From Oligoflexia bacterium (GTDB taxonomy: Bacteria > Bdellovibrionota > Bdellovibrionia > JABDDW01), in NCBI GenBank assembly GCA_023250675.1, contig JAHFAE010000003.1:4311-68310 (forward strand): a stretch of 64,000 nt of DNA. The letters run 5' to 3'. The position numbers were made by a program, and so were the translations under genes. The notes beneath the pieces are model-generated. The model was not told the DNA's origin. It saw only the letters and a program-made list of their open reading frames with translations, and did not search any database. Positions 2,641 through 8,585 of the stretch are shown here, piece after piece; the stretch's first letter is position 1; each line of letters starts with the position of its first letter.

Positions 2641-3102
2641 CTAGCAGGACTCCAAAACCTCTTGGAGAAACTCATTCACATGGGGCCACTTGTCATCGTC
2701 AATTCTCTCAATGGTTTCTCTATCTCCATCATAGACATGCTTGTGATGAAACTTATGGTGATCGGGTAAGTTGGACTTTACGTCCCCATGGGGACTGCAA
2801 TATCGAAATAACTTTGAGCCTCCAGGGATAGAGGCGCTGTAGGTATAATCATATGTGCGTGCTCTAGGCCGCTTTTTATTTGACGGATCTATTTCTACAT
2901 TTTTCCTAATATCAACTCTGATTGAATTTCCTTTTGTCGTTCGGATTACAATATTTTCTGCTCTTAAAATTAAAAAGAAGGGCGTGAGTTTCCTATGAAT
3001 ATAAGTCTTAACCGTAACCATATGTTTTGAGTATTGGCGCAGCACACGATCATGCACAGAGAGATAATTCTCCAGGGTATTCCAATCATGTTTGAGTTTC
3101 AT
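2641..3102 (-). CDS. hypothetical protein; downstream gene of an overlapping two-gene cassette
   Basis: 153-aa ORF. Its ATG overlaps the stop of the upstream 89-aa gene (ATGA), which implies translational coupling. It has a His-rich segment (DHHKFHHKH) and an R-x4-H near the N-terminus. No confident family assignment. Confidence 0.5.
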   Translation of the reverse strand: MKLKHDWNTLENYLSVHDRVLRQYSKHMVTVKTYIHRKLTPFFLILRAENIVIRTTKGNSIRVDIRKNVEIDPSNKKRPRARTYDYTYSASIPGGSKLFRYCSPHGDVKSNLPDHHKFHHKHVYDGDRETIERIDDDKWPHVNEFLQEVLESC

Positions 3103-3368
3103 TTTTTTAGAAATGCGACTTGTCTGGCTAGCATGAGGGCATCAAGGTGATCTTCGTTGAAATTTTTTGAGGTCTCTGCCTTTTCTAAAAGGGCTTCTAC
3201 AGAAAGATCATTTTTTGAAGCTAGAATTTCGAGTTCCATAGTTAGAGCCTTGAGGGCTTCTTCCTTGGAAGAATAAAGAGGTACACTCTTCATTACTTCG
3301 TCGAAAAGCTGATTATCTTTTGCAGAATCATCCTTTGTTTTACGTTTTGTTTTCTCAAGGTCTGCCAT
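3099..3368 (-). CDS. hypothetical small acidic helical protein; upstream gene of the cassette
   Basis: 89 aa. GGAGG sits 5 nt upstream of the ATG. The protein is K/E-rich and predicted helical, and its gene overlaps the downstream gene by 4 nt. Confidence 0.5.
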   Translation of the reverse strand: MADLEKTKRKTKDDSAKDNQLFDEVMKSVPLYSSKEEALKALTMELEILASKNDLSVEALLEKAETSKNFNEDHLDALMLARQVAFLKK

Positions 3369-3701
3369 AAGGCCTCCAGTAGAGATATAATAACATAGGT
3401 TTGCGCCAAATCGTTAGTCGAAAATAGCTTTGTTTACGTATAGTTACAACTTTATCCAAACGGTTTTCTTTACTGCCATTTATCCAATTTTTGTTTTTCG
3501 TGACCGTCAAAGGCTGCGGTCAATTCTGATTCCGCACTCCTGCAAACCTGTCTGTGCCAGAAACTACCCTGTCACAGGGTTTGCCTTACGGGTCGTGCGG
3601 GAATTGCCCTTCGCTTTGACTCTCCCATCCATCTCGCCGCTTGTCTTTTGTGAAAGCGGGCTCGATAGAGGGAGTCCCGAAAAACAAAAGGAGGATTTGA
3701 A

Positions 3702-3908
3702 ATGGGAATTGATAAAATAATTGAAATTGCAGTTGGGTTGACACTCATTGCGGCCGCCACGGGGCAATTGCCCAAAGTGGTGAGGCAAGTTCAAATGGCT
3801 CAACTCCGCCTACTTCAAGATTCTAAGACGTCGACATGGGGTCATCTTATGATTATTGATTCCAAGCAAAATTCTCGAAAGGTTTACATTGTTGATCCCC
3901 AAGAGTAG
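3702..3908 (+). CDS. small single-TM membrane protein (68 aa)
   Basis: A perfect AAGGAGG lies 7 nt upstream of the ATG. The protein has a hydrophobic segment IIEIAVGLTLIAAATG. The gene sits in an otherwise 618-bp intergenic gap. Confidence 0.4.
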   Translation: MGIDKIIEIAVGLTLIAAATGQLPKVVRQVQMAQLRLLQDSKTSTWGHLMIIDSKQNSRKVYIVDPQE

Positions 3909-3956
3909 ACGGGGATCACATCTTCCCAACTCATTAGCCCAAAATTAAATCATCAG

Positions 3957-3976
3957 GGTAGTGTCAGATGATCAGC
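3957..3976. terminator. palindrome tgtcag-N8-ctgaca between convergent genes
   Basis: 6-bp stem between the 3' ends of the 68-aa ORF and the HExxH gene. No clear U-tract. Confidence 0.25.
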
Positions 3977-3986
3977 TGACATAACA

Positions 3987-5081
3987 TTAGATGCCCTCAG
4001 GAATCGTCTGAATCAGACTATCTATATTATATTGCCAATCTTCTGATTGAAACAATTTTTCAAGAGCCTGCTGGAATGATGAACCTAATGAAATCTGGGT
4101 TATGAGTAATTTCAATGCTCCAGTCTTATAGTATGCGTCATCATAATTATTTGGCCCCAAACCTACCGCGCAATATTTTAAAATATCTGAGCTGCTCATA
4201 ACACCCAAAAGATTTAGAGTGCTAAGCGCCATATATTCGGCAAAACCTTCAACCATTTCTCCAATAGCCTCCTCTTTAACACACTCTTTACTTTCCGGCG
4301 TTCCATTATAGGCGTTAACCATCTGATACCGCTTGTTCCGCGTTTTAAAGTAATCTTTGATAAGCTGAGTATTATTGTTGGCGGTAAAGGGATTCGATAA
4401 ATTTTTAAATATTTTAAGCAGTATGAGAGATTCTTCATCAAATAAATTTGAAACTTCTTTAGTGACGGAATAGCATTTATTAATTTTCATGGGCTTATGC
4501 CCATATGCCCAGAGCGGCCAAATTTTTCTTTCGCCGAGGTCTGGTCCGCTTTGACCAAATTGATGAAAACCCTCATGAATTAGCATAAAAATAAGAAGCA
4601 TATTTGATTTGATAAATTGTTTAAAAAACGAATCTTTCGTTTTTTCAGCCAGGCCTTTAAAAAATTCAGGCTGAATATTAAAAAGCATGATTTGAGGTTC
4701 ATTCTGTCCCACTTCTTTGGTGAGGTTTTGAGAAAGAAAATTTGAGAAAGTTTCTATGTTGCCTCGCGCTACGCTCATAAAATCATACAAACCATTTTCG
4801 GGAGGAAGTACTGATTTTAAGTAAGAGGGGCCATAAGATCTGCCGCTTTTTAGCATCAATATACACTGGGGATTCACAATCGGGTCAATTAGTGCAATTG
4901 GGAAGGCCGATAAATGGTATCCGTTTATGATTGGAGCAGTTTTAGCTTCTTTGTCTAAAAATTCTTGAATTTGGATCTTCACTGAATGGTCACGAAGAAA
5001 AGAACAATCATCGTCTATCAAGGCCTGACCACTTGCACCTGTCGAAATTATTAACAATATGAAAATAAATACAATCTTCAT
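3987..5081 (-). CDS. secreted HExxH-motif protein (putative zinc metallopeptidase-like)
   Basis: The start was moved to MKIVFIFILLIISTGASGQA, a signal peptide with AGGGAG upstream. The motif LIHEGFHQFGQ has a Glu about 11 residues after the second His. Confidence 0.5.
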   Translation of the reverse strand: MKIVFIFILLIISTGASGQALIDDDCSFLRDHSVKIQIQEFLDKEAKTAPIINGYHLSAFPIALIDPIVNPQCILMLKSGRSYGPSYLKSVLPPENGLYDFMSVARGNIETFSNFLSQNLTKEVGQNEPQIMLFNIQPEFFKGLAEKTKDSFFKQFIKSNMLLIFMLIHEGFHQFGQSGPDLGERKIWPLWAYGHKPMKINKCYSVTKEVSNLFDEESLILLKIFKNLSNPFTANNNTQLIKDYFKTRNKRYQMVNAYNGTPESKECVKEEAIGEMVEGFAEYMALSTLNLLGVMSSSDILKYCAVGLGPNNYDDAYYKTGALKLLITQISLGSSFQQALEKLFQSEDWQYNIDSLIQTIPEGI

Positions 5082-5299
5082 AAACTCCCTTTGGTCAGAG
5101 AAACAATTATCTTGGCAATGCACCGTCAGTTGCGACATATGTGCCAAAAAGAAATCAAATTAAACGACCCAGTGACCTACTAAGCTAGGAAGACCTGGAA
5201 ATGGTTCCTGGGTCGCGGCCGGGTGAGCGCCCTTTCTTGATAATGTGACCCTTGAATGAGGTTAGCTTAGCTTTCTACGGTGTTTCGGGATCGTCAAAA

Positions 5300-5642: not shown

Positions 5643-6437
5643 GTGCTTATATTAAGATTTTCTGTTCGTGAAAAACATATTCTAAATTCATTAAATAAAT
5701 ATTCGATTCTTTCAAGTCACGAGCTTTACCAACGTTGCTTTAATGGAGTGTCCCACACCTTCATGATGAAGACTTTGAGGGACCTCATTACGAAAGGGAT
5801 GATCTATCGTGTAAAGGGCCGCTACAACGAGGCTCATTCGTTTGCGCTCACCTGCCGTGGTGCCAAAGGCTTAGGGTTTAACCTTCCACTCTCAAGAGTC
5901 TATTGGCAGACCAGGTACCATGACTTGGCAGTTAATAGAGTGCGCTTTATTTTTGAGGATCTTGGCCTTGGGGAAAAGTTTATTTCAATGAGGGATCTAA
6001 GACTTAAAAAAAATGATTCGATTTTAGAAGCCTTAGGGAATGTAAGAGGGAGTGATGGGGTATTTTTCATTCCATCAGAAGGCGGTAATGAAGTTGTTGT
6101 CATGGAAGTGGAAGTTGCTCAAAAAAAACCATTTGAACACAGACGAATTCTTTCAAAATTCAAAGACAATTCCCAAGTTGGTATCGTTCTCTGCTTTTTA
6201 GCAAGCCCTGCCGAGTATCTAACAGCGTTAACCGAATGGCGAAATTTTGAAAAGAGTAGGTCAACAAAACTTTATGTCGTGCACTTAGGAGAGTTCTTAA
6301 AATTCTCCGGCGATGCGAGGGTAAGAACTCTAAGGGGCATCTTACCTTTCCATAAGGCATTCAATTTAAGAAATTGGGTATCAAAGGTAAAGGAAAATGA
6401 AATTGACCAGAAACTCCTTTGGTCACCGTCATTTTGA
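5643..6437 (+). CDS. hypothetical protein with an N-terminal winged-helix-like region
   Basis: 264-aa ORF with a GTG start; the true start is uncertain and could be the internal ATG at 5763. The N-terminus looks wHTH-like (LRDLITKGMIYRVKGRY). The C-terminal domain is unknown and could be replication-relaxation-like or nuclease-like. Confidence 0.45.
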   Translation: MLILRFSVREKHILNSLNKYSILSSHELYQRCFNGVSHTFMMKTLRDLITKGMIYRVKGRYNEAHSFALTCRGAKGLGFNLPLSRVYWQTRYHDLAVNRVRFIFEDLGLGEKFISMRDLRLKKNDSILEALGNVRGSDGVFFIPSEGGNEVVVMEVEVAQKKPFEHRRILSKFKDNSQVGIVLCFLASPAEYLTALTEWRNFEKSRSTKLYVVHLGEFLKFSGDARVRTLRGILPFHKAFNLRNWVSKVKENEIDQKLLWSPSF

Positions 6438-6625: not shown

Positions 6626-6681
6626 AGAGAAATGAAAAATCATGGATGAATTTATAAGTTGTTTTATTTTTAGAGGTGTTG

Positions 6682-6855
6682 ATGAAGTTAGATGAAATGA
6701 CGATTGAAACAGTTCAAGTTAAGATCTTAAATGATGACTACGAAAAGAAATTGACAAATTTAGTAAAAATACTTTTGGAAATTGGAGAGACAACCAATTC
6801 AAGACAGGCTAATAAGGATGAGTCAAAACCGTCTGAAAATTTGGAGGCCGCATGA
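6682..6855 (+). CDS. 57-aa small protein translationally coupled to the serine recombinase (candidate directionality factor or regulator)
   Basis: ATG preceded by AGAGGTG. The stop TGA overlaps the recombinase ATG (ATGA). This ORF is not in the supplied track, presumably because it is under 60 aa. Confidence 0.4.
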   Translation: MKLDEMTIETVQVKILNDDYEKKLTNLVKILLEIGETTNSRQANKDESKPSENLEAA

Positions 6856-8585
6856 AACGAATTGGGCTCTATTTAAGAGTATCCACTGAAGAGCAGGCAA
6901 GAATTACTGACGGGAGTCTCGTCAGTCAGAAAGCCAGGCTTGAAGAATATGTGGCAGGCCTTAACAGGCGAGATAGCGGTTGGGGTCAGATAGTTGACGT
7001 TTACCAAGATACCCTTTCGGCTAAAGACATGAACCGCCCGGAGTTTAAAAGACTCATTGCCGATGTTCGCTCGGGCCGCATCAACCTGATCTTGGCAACA
7101 GAGCTTTCCAGATTGTCGAGGTCCACTAGGGATTTTTGCGAGCTGTGGGATATCTTTAAACAATATAAGACCCGCTTCATAACCCTGCGGGAGCAGTTTG
7201 ATACAACCACGGCCGCAGGTGAGATGATGGTTTTTAACCTCATTAATTTTGCTCAATTTGAAAGAAAACAAACGGCTGAAAGAATATCCGCAAACCAGCT
7301 ATCCCGTGCCAAACGCGGGCTTTGGAACGGTGGCACGATTCCATTGGGTTATACCCGTAACCCCAAAAACCCGGGGCAGCTCATTCCAAATCAGGATGAA
7401 GCCAAAGACGTTGAGACGATTTTTAAGACGTTTCTTGAAACTGGAGCTGTTAGAAAAGCCTGTCAGGCCGTTACAAAGAAGGGGATCTTCTCAAAGTCAT
7501 ATGTGAATAAGCACGGTATTGCAAAGGGTGGTGGCGCTTTCACGGTCCCAAGCCTCTATCAAATCCTCACCAATAAGGCCTATCTTGGAATTAGAGAGAT
7601 CAATAAGAAGAAGTCGACCAGTAAATTGGAGGAAGTGAAAGCGGCGTGGGAGCCGATTGTAAATCGGGAATTATTTGACCTGGTTCAAGAAAGACTTGGA
7701 GCAAATAAGAATAAGTATAAACCTGCCGAGTGGAAAAAATATGCTTATCCGCTCACTGAAAAAATTATCTGTGGTGAATGCGGCAAGAATCTCGGGGGCA
7801 AATCTGCTAACGGCCAGGGCGGGACCTATAATTACTATGCTCATGCAAGGCAGCTTCATAGTGACGGCAAATCGCACTTGAAGCGATGTCAAATGGAGAA
7901 GGTGAGGGCTCAAAGGACCGAAGAGATGGTGATTCGCTCCCTTAGAGACGTTCTCTCAAGGCCGGAAAAGATTGACGAGATGATCCAAGCCTACGCGAAA
8001 CAAAGCCAAGAGGTGATACCTGGGCTAGAGGGAAAGCTTAAGCAAGTCGACATTGAAATTAGGACCCATGGGAAACGGCGCGAGAATTTAATGGAACGTA
8101 TTGCAGATTTGCCGCCAGAAATTAATGCTGATTTATTCTTTGAGAAGATTAAGGCTGTGACTAAAAAACTTGAATCGGCAGACGTCATAAAAGCTGATCT
8201 CATGGCACAGAAAAACAAAGCGACGGGCCAGGTTATTGATAGAGAAGGGTTAAGGCGAAGGCTGCACAATTCCTTGGCGCTCCTAGAATCAAGTCCCAAG
8301 GAGAAACAACGCGAGATCTTTAATAACGTCATCCAGTTTGCAGAAGTTTATCCGATGAAAATGCGGTTGGGACTCTACGCCCCGACCGTTTCCTCAACGC
8401 TGACCGATCAAAAGCTTACTGGTACTGATTCTTATTTAAGAAGGTGTGCCAGTTCGACCAGCGTTAGGAGTGGTGCCTCCGAGGAGAATCGAACTCCTAC
8501 ACCCGTGAAGGTACTGGATTTTGAGTCCAGCGCGTCTACCAGTTCCGCCACAGAGGCAATCAAAAAAAACCTAGTGAGTTCATGA
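6852..8585 (+). CDS. large serine recombinase (integrase/resolvase-type N-terminal domain)
   Basis: The N-terminus MKRIGLYLRVSTEEQ carries the catalytic Ser and a resolvase-like domain (~140 aa), followed by a long recombinase/zinc-ribbon/coiled-coil region (CGECG...). GGAGG precedes the start. The last ~38 codons are read antisense through the tRNA-Leu. Confidence 0.8.
   Translation: MKRIGLYLRVSTEEQARITDGSLVSQKARLEEYVAGLNRRDSGWGQIVDVYQDTLSAKDMNRPEFKRLIADVRSGRINLILATELSRLSRSTRDFCELWDIFKQYKTRFITLREQFDTTTAAGEMMVFNLINFAQFERKQTAERISANQLSRAKRGLWNGGTIPLGYTRNPKNPGQLIPNQDEAKDVETIFKTFLETGAVRKACQAVTKKGIFSKSYVNKHGIAKGGGAFTVPSLYQILTNKAYLGIREINKKKSTSKLEEVKAAWEPIVNRELFDLVQERLGANKNKYKPAEWKKYAYPLTEKIICGECGKNLGGKSANGQGGTYNYYAHARQLHSDGKSHLKRCQMEKVRAQRTEEMVIRSLRDVLSRPEKIDEMIQAYAKQSQEVIPGLEGKLKQVDIEIRTHGKRRENLMERIADLPPEINADLFFEKIKAVTKKLESADVIKADLMAQKNKATGQVIDREGLRRRLHNSLALLESSPKEKQREIFNNVIQFAEVYPMKMRLGLYAPTVSSTLTDQKLTGTDSYLRRCASSTSVRSGASEENRTPTPVKVLDFESSASTSSATEAIKKNLVSS
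8471..8557 (-). tRNA. tRNA-Leu (anticodon CAA)
   Basis: The reverse complement folds as a class II tRNA. The acceptor stem is GCCTCTG/CGGAGGC. The D-arm contains GG. The anticodon stem-loop is CTGGA-CTCAAAA-TCCAG, with U33, anticodon CAA and A37. There is a long variable arm, a T-arm AGGAG-TTCGATT-CTCCT, a discriminator A and an encoded CCA. Confidence 0.85.

Follow-up and report, generated by a model that had tools for sequence, protein, structure and literature searches.

The window analysed here, a stretch of DNA 64,000 nt long, is compact: under a crude gene model, ~90% of it is coding. By the same model its largest intergenic gap lies at 3369-3986 and measures 618 nt, against 495 nt for the runner-up and a median of 15 nt, and the initial annotation was thus right to call it unusually long for such a genome. 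The gap is flanked by two minus-strand genes, one encoding an 89-aa protein (3099-3368) and the other a protein with an HExxH motif (3987-5147). G+C content is 53% at 3500-3700 as compared with ~40% in the surroundings, and searches for tRNA and tmRNA within the gap returned none.

The genes around the gap are unfamiliar. The 89-aa gene overlaps a 153-aa gene by 4 nt (2641-3368, minus strand), forming what had been termed a cassette. Neither product has a match in Pfam, NCBIfam, PHROGs or PADLOC, and a TumE/TumA-type assignment of the pair was dropped in the absence of a family match; the 153-aa product contains a His-rich stretch, HHKFHHKH. On the other side, the HExxH protein (386 aa) begins with a signal-peptide-like segment, and a 264-aa protein is encoded further along on the plus strand (5643-6437), ahead of the recombinase gene described below. 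These two proteins also lack a family match, and their genes look like variable cargo because metagenome contigs of the same strain (L001, L002 and L003) break here.

Within the gap, conservation begins abruptly at the 5' arm of a helix that we call P1 (Table 1). The AT-rich spacer upstream of this arm presumably holds the promoters of the 89-aa gene, on the minus strand, and of the leader, on the plus strand; one promoter-like site is found, on the plus strand at 3362-3391. The repeat TTTATCCAA occurs twice, at 3451-3459, just 5' of the arm, and at 3479-3487, running into it. AUCCAAUUUU, as present in the window, complements the 3'-UTR block AAAAUUGGAU of the other elements but not the degenerate version of that block in the window itself. 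At the far end of the gap, the palindrome noted after the ORF does exist, at 3962-3981 and not at 3957-3976. It begins where the conserved module ends and lies outside it, adjoins the stop codon (3987-3989) of the minus-strand HExxH gene, and is absent from the homologues in an alignment of the downstream region.

Table 1. Features of the locus, with the recombinase-tRNA overlaps of the window and of two related loci. Positions refer to the window unless another locus is named.
Feature	Position	Strand	Basis or sequence
AT-rich spacer, ~35% G+C	3369-3480		unalignable to homologues 5' of the P1 arm
Structured leader RNA, ~77 bp in 9-10 helices	3481-3701	+	covariance model, covariation, MFE z
P1, 5' arm: anti-SD AUCC, AA, UUUUUGUUUUUCG	3482-3500	+	inverted repeat, MFE structures
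Domain 1, P2-P6	3506-3620	+	same helices in five homologues folded separately
P2	3506-3512 with 3614-3620	+	GUCAAAG with CUUUGAC
P3	3521-3526 with 3601-3606	+	domain 1
P4	3532-3537 with 3595-3600	+	domain 1
P5	3542-3548 with 3578-3584	+	domain 1
P6 hairpin, CUGUG.CAG-N8-CUG.CACAG	3552-3577	+	conserved, covarying
Domain 2, P7-P8	3622-3674	+	covariation
P7, CUCCC/GGGAG plus AUC/GAU	3622-3626 with 3670-3674	+	brackets P8
P8, CCGCUU/AAGCGG	3637-3642 with 3654-3659	+	conserved
P1, 3' arm: CGAAAAACAAAAGGAGGAU, includes AAGGAGG 3688-3694	3678-3696	+	inverted repeat, fold
Small protein gene, 68 aa, core ~53 aa	3702-3908	+	homology, dN/dS
Hairpin over stop codon, GATCCCC-10 nt-GGGGATC	3894-3917	+	covaries
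Conserved 3'-UTR block, CAAAATTGGATCAAnTGAGTAGTGT in relatives, degenerate in window	3938-3964	+	downstream-region alignment
Near-palindrome, 20 bp, TGTCAGATGATCAGCTGACA, 9/10 pairs	3962-3981		read from sequence
Recombinase	6852-8585	+	
tRNA Leu-CAA	8471-8557	-	
Recombinase, L006	3678-5369		
tRNA Leu-TAA, L006	3683-3771		
Recombinase, L009	1994-3637		
tRNA Phe-GAA, L009	1997-2072		

The gap contains a real gene. A 68-aa ORF opened by AAGGAGG-N7-ATG had been proposed, and its coordinates are correct: the Shine-Dalgarno sequence (SD) is followed after 7 nt by the ATG at 3702, the ORF runs to the TAG at 3906-3908, and there is no other in-frame start. A protein search with the product yielded 12 homologues (66-79% identity), and metagenome and genome scans added loci L010-L037. 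Across 22 distinct homologues recovered from the loci, dN/dS is 0.04-0.23 with dS ranging from 0.5 to saturation (Nei-Gojobori). The ORF thus withstands the conservation test that had been set for it and, judged by its sequence evolution, it is a genuine coding gene. The same 22 sequences share a core motif, A[AS]ATG[QN]LPK...AQ..LL.[DE]S.[AT]S.WG, and a profile search of 1.84 billion representatives brings the family to 148 cluster representatives, nearly all of 40-100 aa. The hairpin over the stop codon is present in all five close homologues with differing sequences (for example CTGGCTCTCGC/GCGAGAGTCAG and CGGCGAAA/TTTCGCCG), and the conserved 3'-UTR block marks the end of the conserved module.

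The small protein has no family match in Pfam, NCBIfam, PHROGs or PADLOC, and a tblastn search of plasmid and phage collections gave no match. Its AF2 model, of modest confidence (pLDDT 67), comprises three helices (3-20, 23-40 and 46-56) arranged as a helical hairpin with a hydrophobic N-terminal helix; a Foldseek search of this model against the PDB found nothing. The single transmembrane segment assigned earlier is borderline and plausible at most, since the hydrophobic core spans only ~15-17 residues and the best 19-residue Kyte-Doolittle mean is 1.3-1.9 across the family. A holin or phage-defence accessory function, also suggested at the outset, is disfavoured: no lysis genes lie nearby, PADLOC and PHROG searches give no match, and the neighbours of the module are recombinases, HTH proteins and uncharacterised cargo.

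Ahead of the small gene lies an elaborate RNA structure, whose 3' end in the window is the SD and start codon of the gene itself. The segment 3369-3701 folds with an MFE z of -4.19 (none of 100 shuffles as low) and 3481-3706 with a z of -4.73 (none of 200 shuffles folds as well); the latter segment matches the covariance model at 208.5 bits. A repeat search finds 3482-3504 repeated in inverted form at 3674-3696 (23 nt); the two arms have 169 nt between them, take in the SD and close the whole element. P1 is the outermost helix and encloses two domains, P2-P6 and P7-P8. In the model alignment, 14 of the 16 pairs of helix 1 change on both sides, and helices 3, 5 and 6 of domain 1 are 84-93% paired with many two-sided changes. 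P2 carries a variable extension that covaries (UUCG/CGAA, CCUUUG/CAAAGG, CC/GG), P6 shows exchanges of U-A for C-G and of G-C for A-U, and a hairpin of variable length is inserted 3' of P5. Three pairs of domain 1 are invariant (G83:C114, C85:G112 and A86:U111). Domain 2 has a wholly different sequence in other subgroups with its pairing kept (CCUUCC/GGAAGG, GGUUGCCC/GGGCAACC), and all pairs of helices 8 and 10, which are 90% and 97% paired, covary.

This fold refines the leader of nested hairpins drawn in the initial annotation. The covariation backs a structured leader, and two of its elements are real and conserved: the ccgctt-N11-aagcgg hairpin is P8, and the ctccc/gggag part of the proposed gactctccc/gagggagtc pairing is P7, which brackets P8. 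A third, the ccctg-tca-caggg hairpin, can be drawn but is dropped by the homologues, in which the conserved helix is CTGTG.CAG-N8-CTG.CACAG (P6), and the main helix P1 had been overlooked. A transcription attenuator is likewise not supported, as no terminator hairpin plus U-tract is conserved 5' of the ORF; only 3501-3522 resembles a terminator, with a weak T-run, and neither L013 nor the other subgroups retain it.

Homologues that were folded separately converge on one architecture. The leader is 69-87% identical among four other distinct sequences (L006, L009, L013 and L038), and it appears to be under selection, since this identity is far higher than expected from the synonymous divergence of the adjacent ORF, where dS runs from 0.5 to saturation. 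The covariation alignment comprises 17 distinct homologues from three gene arrangements, L026, which has a 39-nt internal duplication, being left out. On this alignment, which is fitted to the model and therefore favours it in the pair counts (the E-values of the model being rough), standard pairs occupy 81.2% of cells, against 59.9% when shuffled (reached in 0 of 500 trials) and 40-49% when partners are slid, and the covariation score is 0.551 against 0.208 for shuffled and at most 0.192 for slid pairings (n=17 throughout). Two-sided changes affect 65 of the 77 pairs (n=17), the conserved and covarying structure looked for in a structured cis-regulatory leader. Three sequences, L045, L048 and L053, fit the model even though they had no part in its building. 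The structure check and Rfam scan proposed at the outset therefore come out in favour of a conserved, covarying structure with no Rfam match: Rfam 15 gives nothing for 3300-4050 at E <= 10, only tRNA-Leu for the whole window, and chance-level matches for L017 and L009. Thus, positions 3481-3701 encode a structured RNA of a family without prior description or Rfam entry.

It is the plus strand that carries the structure, and as RNA, not protein. G-U pairs are frequent on that strand, and the model scores 170-240 bits there against at most 17 bits on the minus strand. A 96-aa ORF (3430-3720) overlies the leader in the window, and we rejected it as a protein since the indels are not multiples of 3. 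Comparable ORFs of 78-113 aa over the RNA in relatives were also rejected as spurious: a 1-nt indel separates the near-identical L017 and L021. When the translation of one such 88-aa 'ORF' was searched against 5.8 billion proteins, it matched itself and one other. Public records of L017 (7344-7610), L019 (7340-7576), L043 (2339-2680) and L052 (1073-1339) have gene calls of 78-113 aa that coincide exactly with the RNA, and these appear to be the structured RNA mis-annotated as hypothetical proteins. Three DNA patterns derived from the leader, searched against viral contigs, produced a single chance hit in a high-GC gene (L039) and nothing else.

The RNA is found ahead of more than one kind of gene. 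An nhmmer profile of the leader matched L017 and L021, which display a second arrangement: a protein with HTH and Recombinase (PF07508) domains lies 5' of the RNA, behind which come a 111-aa gene (its product ending ...ALAIRWGL) and the small ORF, followed in several loci by a resolvase. Covariance models R1 and R2, run with filters off, added full-length copies in L016, L019, L035 and L036, and relatives of the 111-aa protein led to three more copies, in L045, L048 and L053 (57-107 bits). The same two models uncovered a third subgroup (L025, L028 and L031, plus L026) with the order tRNA-Pro, small ORF, RNA and a 149-aa Cys-rich gene. Its matches are weak (23-33 bits) and L025 has no thermodynamic signal (z = +0.1); a compensatory change is seen in this subgroup, from CCCCCG/CGGGGG to CCCCUCG/CGAGGGG. 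Two variants of the third subgroup are rearranged: L026 has a 39-nt tandem duplication inside the P5/P6 region (~800-900), and L029 (~347-600) diverges completely past P5, in what looks like a rearrangement breakpoint.

Two features hold across these arrangements. First, an SD and AUG follow the 3' arm of the RNA at a fixed distance in 17 of 17 copies, the gene behind them being the small ORF, the 111-aa gene or the 149-aa gene. Second, a member of the small-ORF family lies within 0.5 kb of every RNA copy, be it directly downstream, two genes downstream or upstream. Among loci with the 111-aa gene, RNA and small ORF are both present in L043, L047 and L052, and neither is present in L040, L042, L046, L049 and L051. 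Small ORFs are also found without the RNA in L010, L022-24, L030, L033 and L034. The RNA and the small gene, then, occur together, and leader, ORF, stop-codon hairpin and 3' block form a portable module of ~480 nt (3481-3964), of which the window has one copy.

How could such an RNA act? In the predicted fold the SD lies within the 3' arm of P1 in all subgroups and thus takes part in the structure as an expression platform would. Every subgroup pairs it with an anti-SD in the 5' arm: AUCC/CUCC...UUUUGUUU in the window's group (CUCC/GGAG), CCUUUC in the second (CCUUUC/GAAAGG) and CUCCUUUAG in the third (CUCCUUUAG/CUAAAGAGGAG). Partition-function calculations give the window's SD an unpaired probability of 0.35 in the full leader, that is, only partly buried, against 0.78 in a truncated mRNA; for its relatives the ranges are 0.001-0.5 and 0.25-0.98. 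Since these predicted values leave the SD largely paired in the full leader and open in truncated mRNAs, control of translation in cis by SD occlusion appears to be the best supported mode of action. We envision that 3481-3701 is transcribed from the plus strand as a leader RNA of ~220 nt, in which P1 would pair the 5' anti-SD segment with the SD region of the next gene, closing over P2-P6 and P7-P8. In the full fold the ribosome-binding site would be occluded and the 68-aa gene poorly translated, until an event that prevents or opens P1 turns translation on. The leading candidate for this trigger would be an element-encoded protein, perhaps the small protein, because its gene stays with the RNA in all three positions, be it directly behind, two genes behind or ahead of it.

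We hold with moderate confidence that the RNA is a cis-acting leader that controls translation and is carried on serine-recombinase elements inserted in tRNA genes. Several observations count against this leader reading. The fold is far more elaborate than SD occlusion requires, P1, though AU-rich, has a length of 12-18 bp that makes its opening hard to picture, and the third subgroup has weak scores, with L025 lacking a thermodynamic signal. The window's own SD is predicted to be only partly buried, and the pair counts come from alignments fitted to the model. Moreover, being the leader of the small gene cannot account for everything, since the third subgroup has its small gene 5' of the RNA.

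Among the functions first proposed, a riboswitch comes nearest. Here P2-P8 would form the aptamer for a small molecule whose binding stabilises or destabilises P1, which would double as the expression platform. The complex multi-helix core with its invariant loop and junction nucleotides would suit this role, as would the presence of the same RNA ahead of three unrelated genes, a distribution typical of riboswitches. The downstream genes, however, encode uncharacterised mobile-element proteins and none for metabolism or transport, so that no ligand can be inferred from them; nor would a riboswitch explain why the small ORF is so strictly found with the RNA whatever the gene order, and Rfam offers no match. 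We therefore regard a riboswitch as unlikely.

The burial of the SD also brings to mind type I toxin-antitoxin systems, another of the initial suggestions. The tisB, zorO and dinQ mRNAs have an extended, structured UTR whose 5' end hides the SD. By analogy, the small product, with its hydrophobic N-terminal helix, would be a membrane toxin, the leader would keep its mRNA untranslatable until processed, and an antisense RNA would serve as antitoxin; the occurrence of the module in varied contexts on mobile elements would fit as well. Yet no conserved antisense element is present, and a crude consensus scan, itself weak evidence, detects no minus-strand promoter-like site in 3000-4300. The small protein matches neither Hok, Ldr, Fst, TisB or Ibs nor other toxin families, many of its relatives are embedded in operons without the leader, translationally coupled to an HTH-recombinase-domain gene or a resolvase, and in one subgroup the RNA is downstream of the small gene. 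There is also no consistent long-distance 5'-3' pairing: the sites predicted for a hok-like pairing of 5' leader and 3' UTR vary across homologues, and this candidate was rejected. A type I toxin is thus improbable.

The elements that carry the module can be recognised. In the window, L006 and L009, it is accompanied by a homologous pair, a ~55-aa gene and a large serine recombinase (Int), relative to which its position and orientation vary between loci; no recombinase is found within 3 kb of it in L013. In all three of the former loci the recombinase ORF runs antisense through a whole tRNA gene and ends just past its 5' end. Because the entire tRNA is read antisense by the 3' end of the recombinase each time, these are related elements inserted in tRNA genes, and because the ORF stops just beyond the tRNA 5' end, the junction lies in or at the tRNA. 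The same overlap implies that Int has a C-terminal stretch of ~30 residues that varies from one target to another. At ~3400-3500, where the left end of the island might be marked by a repeat or a displaced piece of tRNA-Leu, a search found neither. In the window, the small partner gene (59 aa, 6676-6855, plus strand) overlaps the Int start codon and has homologues at the same position in L006 and L009. Its product has conserved text (...SIETV...DYEEK...LVKLLLSI...) and no family match, and it could be an excision or directionality factor.

Elsewhere the RNA belongs to a recurrent five-part module (L019 6903-8932, L043 1382-4008, L052 450-2660) composed of a stand-alone HTH + Recombinase-domain protein without catalytic domain, the RNA, the 111-aa gene, the small ORF and a small resolvase. 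This arrangement resembles a serine recombinase split between two genes, one for DNA binding and one for catalysis. Such surroundings raise the idea that the RNA acts in trans for the mobile element, as the RNA partner of the small protein, of the recombinase-domain proteins or of both, the overlap with the SD being incidental; the RNAs encoded in the 5' untranslated ends of IS110 elements offer an analogy. This would account for a complexity beyond the needs of SD occlusion, for the co-occurrence with the small ORF whatever the gene order, and for an invariable location on elements with serine recombinases or stand-alone HTH + Recombinase-domain proteins. Against it, the leader shows no guide-like complementarity to the tRNA-Leu integration site, the position of SD and AUG is fixed in 17 of 17 copies, and L013 has no recombinase nearby, and we judge a trans-acting RNA to be quite improbable. 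A broader proposal is that the RNA is one half of an RNA + small-protein module that times the establishment or recombination of serine-recombinase elements. For instance, the small protein or the HTH + Recombinase-domain protein would bind the RNA to determine how far the resolvase operon is expressed, or the RNA itself would work in trans; we treat this proposal as speculative and rather unlikely.

Relatives of the 111-aa protein extend into other surroundings. Three of them (L049 2891-4692, L046 1572-4324 and L040 3465-5333), all without RNA and small ORF, have as neighbours ArdA and DUF6908, a TraC/VirB4-like ATPase directly 5', and a Fic protein downstream. More distant relatives, in loci without the RNA, adjoin ArdA, DUF6908 and TraC/TrbI genes. 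ArdA and transfer genes are typical of leading regions, and the neighbourhood is conjugative or anti-restriction, which suggests an establishment or early-gene role. Could the structure then work as single-stranded DNA, as a promoter or origin of the Frpo/ssi type during transfer, and not as RNA? Besides these adjacent transfer genes, it counts in favour that Frpo elements are folded regulatory regions of 50-350 nt located ahead of early genes (PMC11541004). However, the fold is multi-branched and not one long hairpin mimicking a duplex promoter, no stem holds a -35/-10 conserved across subgroups (a TTGACT-like motif occurs in one subgroup only, without a suitably spaced -10), the RNA is missing from every locus that has ArdA or Tra genes, and the fixed coupling to SD and AUG is accounted for by RNA. 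A single-stranded DNA function is therefore very improbable.

If the leader reading is true, a complex RNA family (~77 bp, two domains, strong covariation, no Rfam entry) joins the few large orphan bacterial RNAs. It would be linked both to 148 clusters of unannotated small proteins and to elements that have a serine recombinase and use tRNA genes as insertion sites, and would offer experimenters a concrete way into the control of early or accessory genes by such elements; recognising the RNA would also correct the metagenome annotation of hypothetical proteins of 78-113 aa. Should the reading as an RNA + small-protein module be the true one, the RNA would found a new class, large, structured and confined to mobile elements.

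How does the RNA compare with known systems? As in retron msr-msd RNA, inverted repeats flank a structured segment of ~170 nt, but neighbouring ORFs and Pfam scans reveal no reverse transcriptase and the 3' arm is an SD, and a retron is not supported. Frpo/ssi elements, in which a long hairpin mimics a duplex with -35, -10 and UP elements (PMC11541004), are alike in being folded elements of 200-300 nt ahead of mobile-element genes, with a partly conjugative and anti-restriction gene neighbourhood in the distant relatives. Here, in contrast, the fold is branched, no -35/-10 mimic is conserved, and it is the sense strand that is structured, with SD and AUG at its end. The type I toxin mRNAs (hok, tisB, zorO, dinQ, aapA1) likewise travel on mobile elements, specify a small product with a hydrophobic stretch and have an extended, highly structured UTR whose distant 5' end masks the SD, as is predicted here; in the present case, however, no antisense RNA gene was found, the small gene often sits in an operon without the leader, and toxin homology is lacking. 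Translational and 'orphan' riboswitches resemble it more closely, as conserved, covarying multi-helix 5' leaders with the SD in the closing helix and different genes downstream. They differ in that here no ligand can be inferred, mobile-element genes lie downstream, no Rfam family exists, and the RNA is always with one small gene, even when that gene is upstream. Finally, there are the autoregulatory leaders of ribosomal-protein operons. The small protein departs from their regulators in its hydrophobic N-terminal helix and lack of a recognisable RNA-binding domain, and in one subgroup the presumed regulator gene is upstream of the RNA. As in these operons, however, a structured 5' UTR covers the SD and the presumed regulator is encoded in the same operon, an analogy that would account for the constant association of RNA and small gene.
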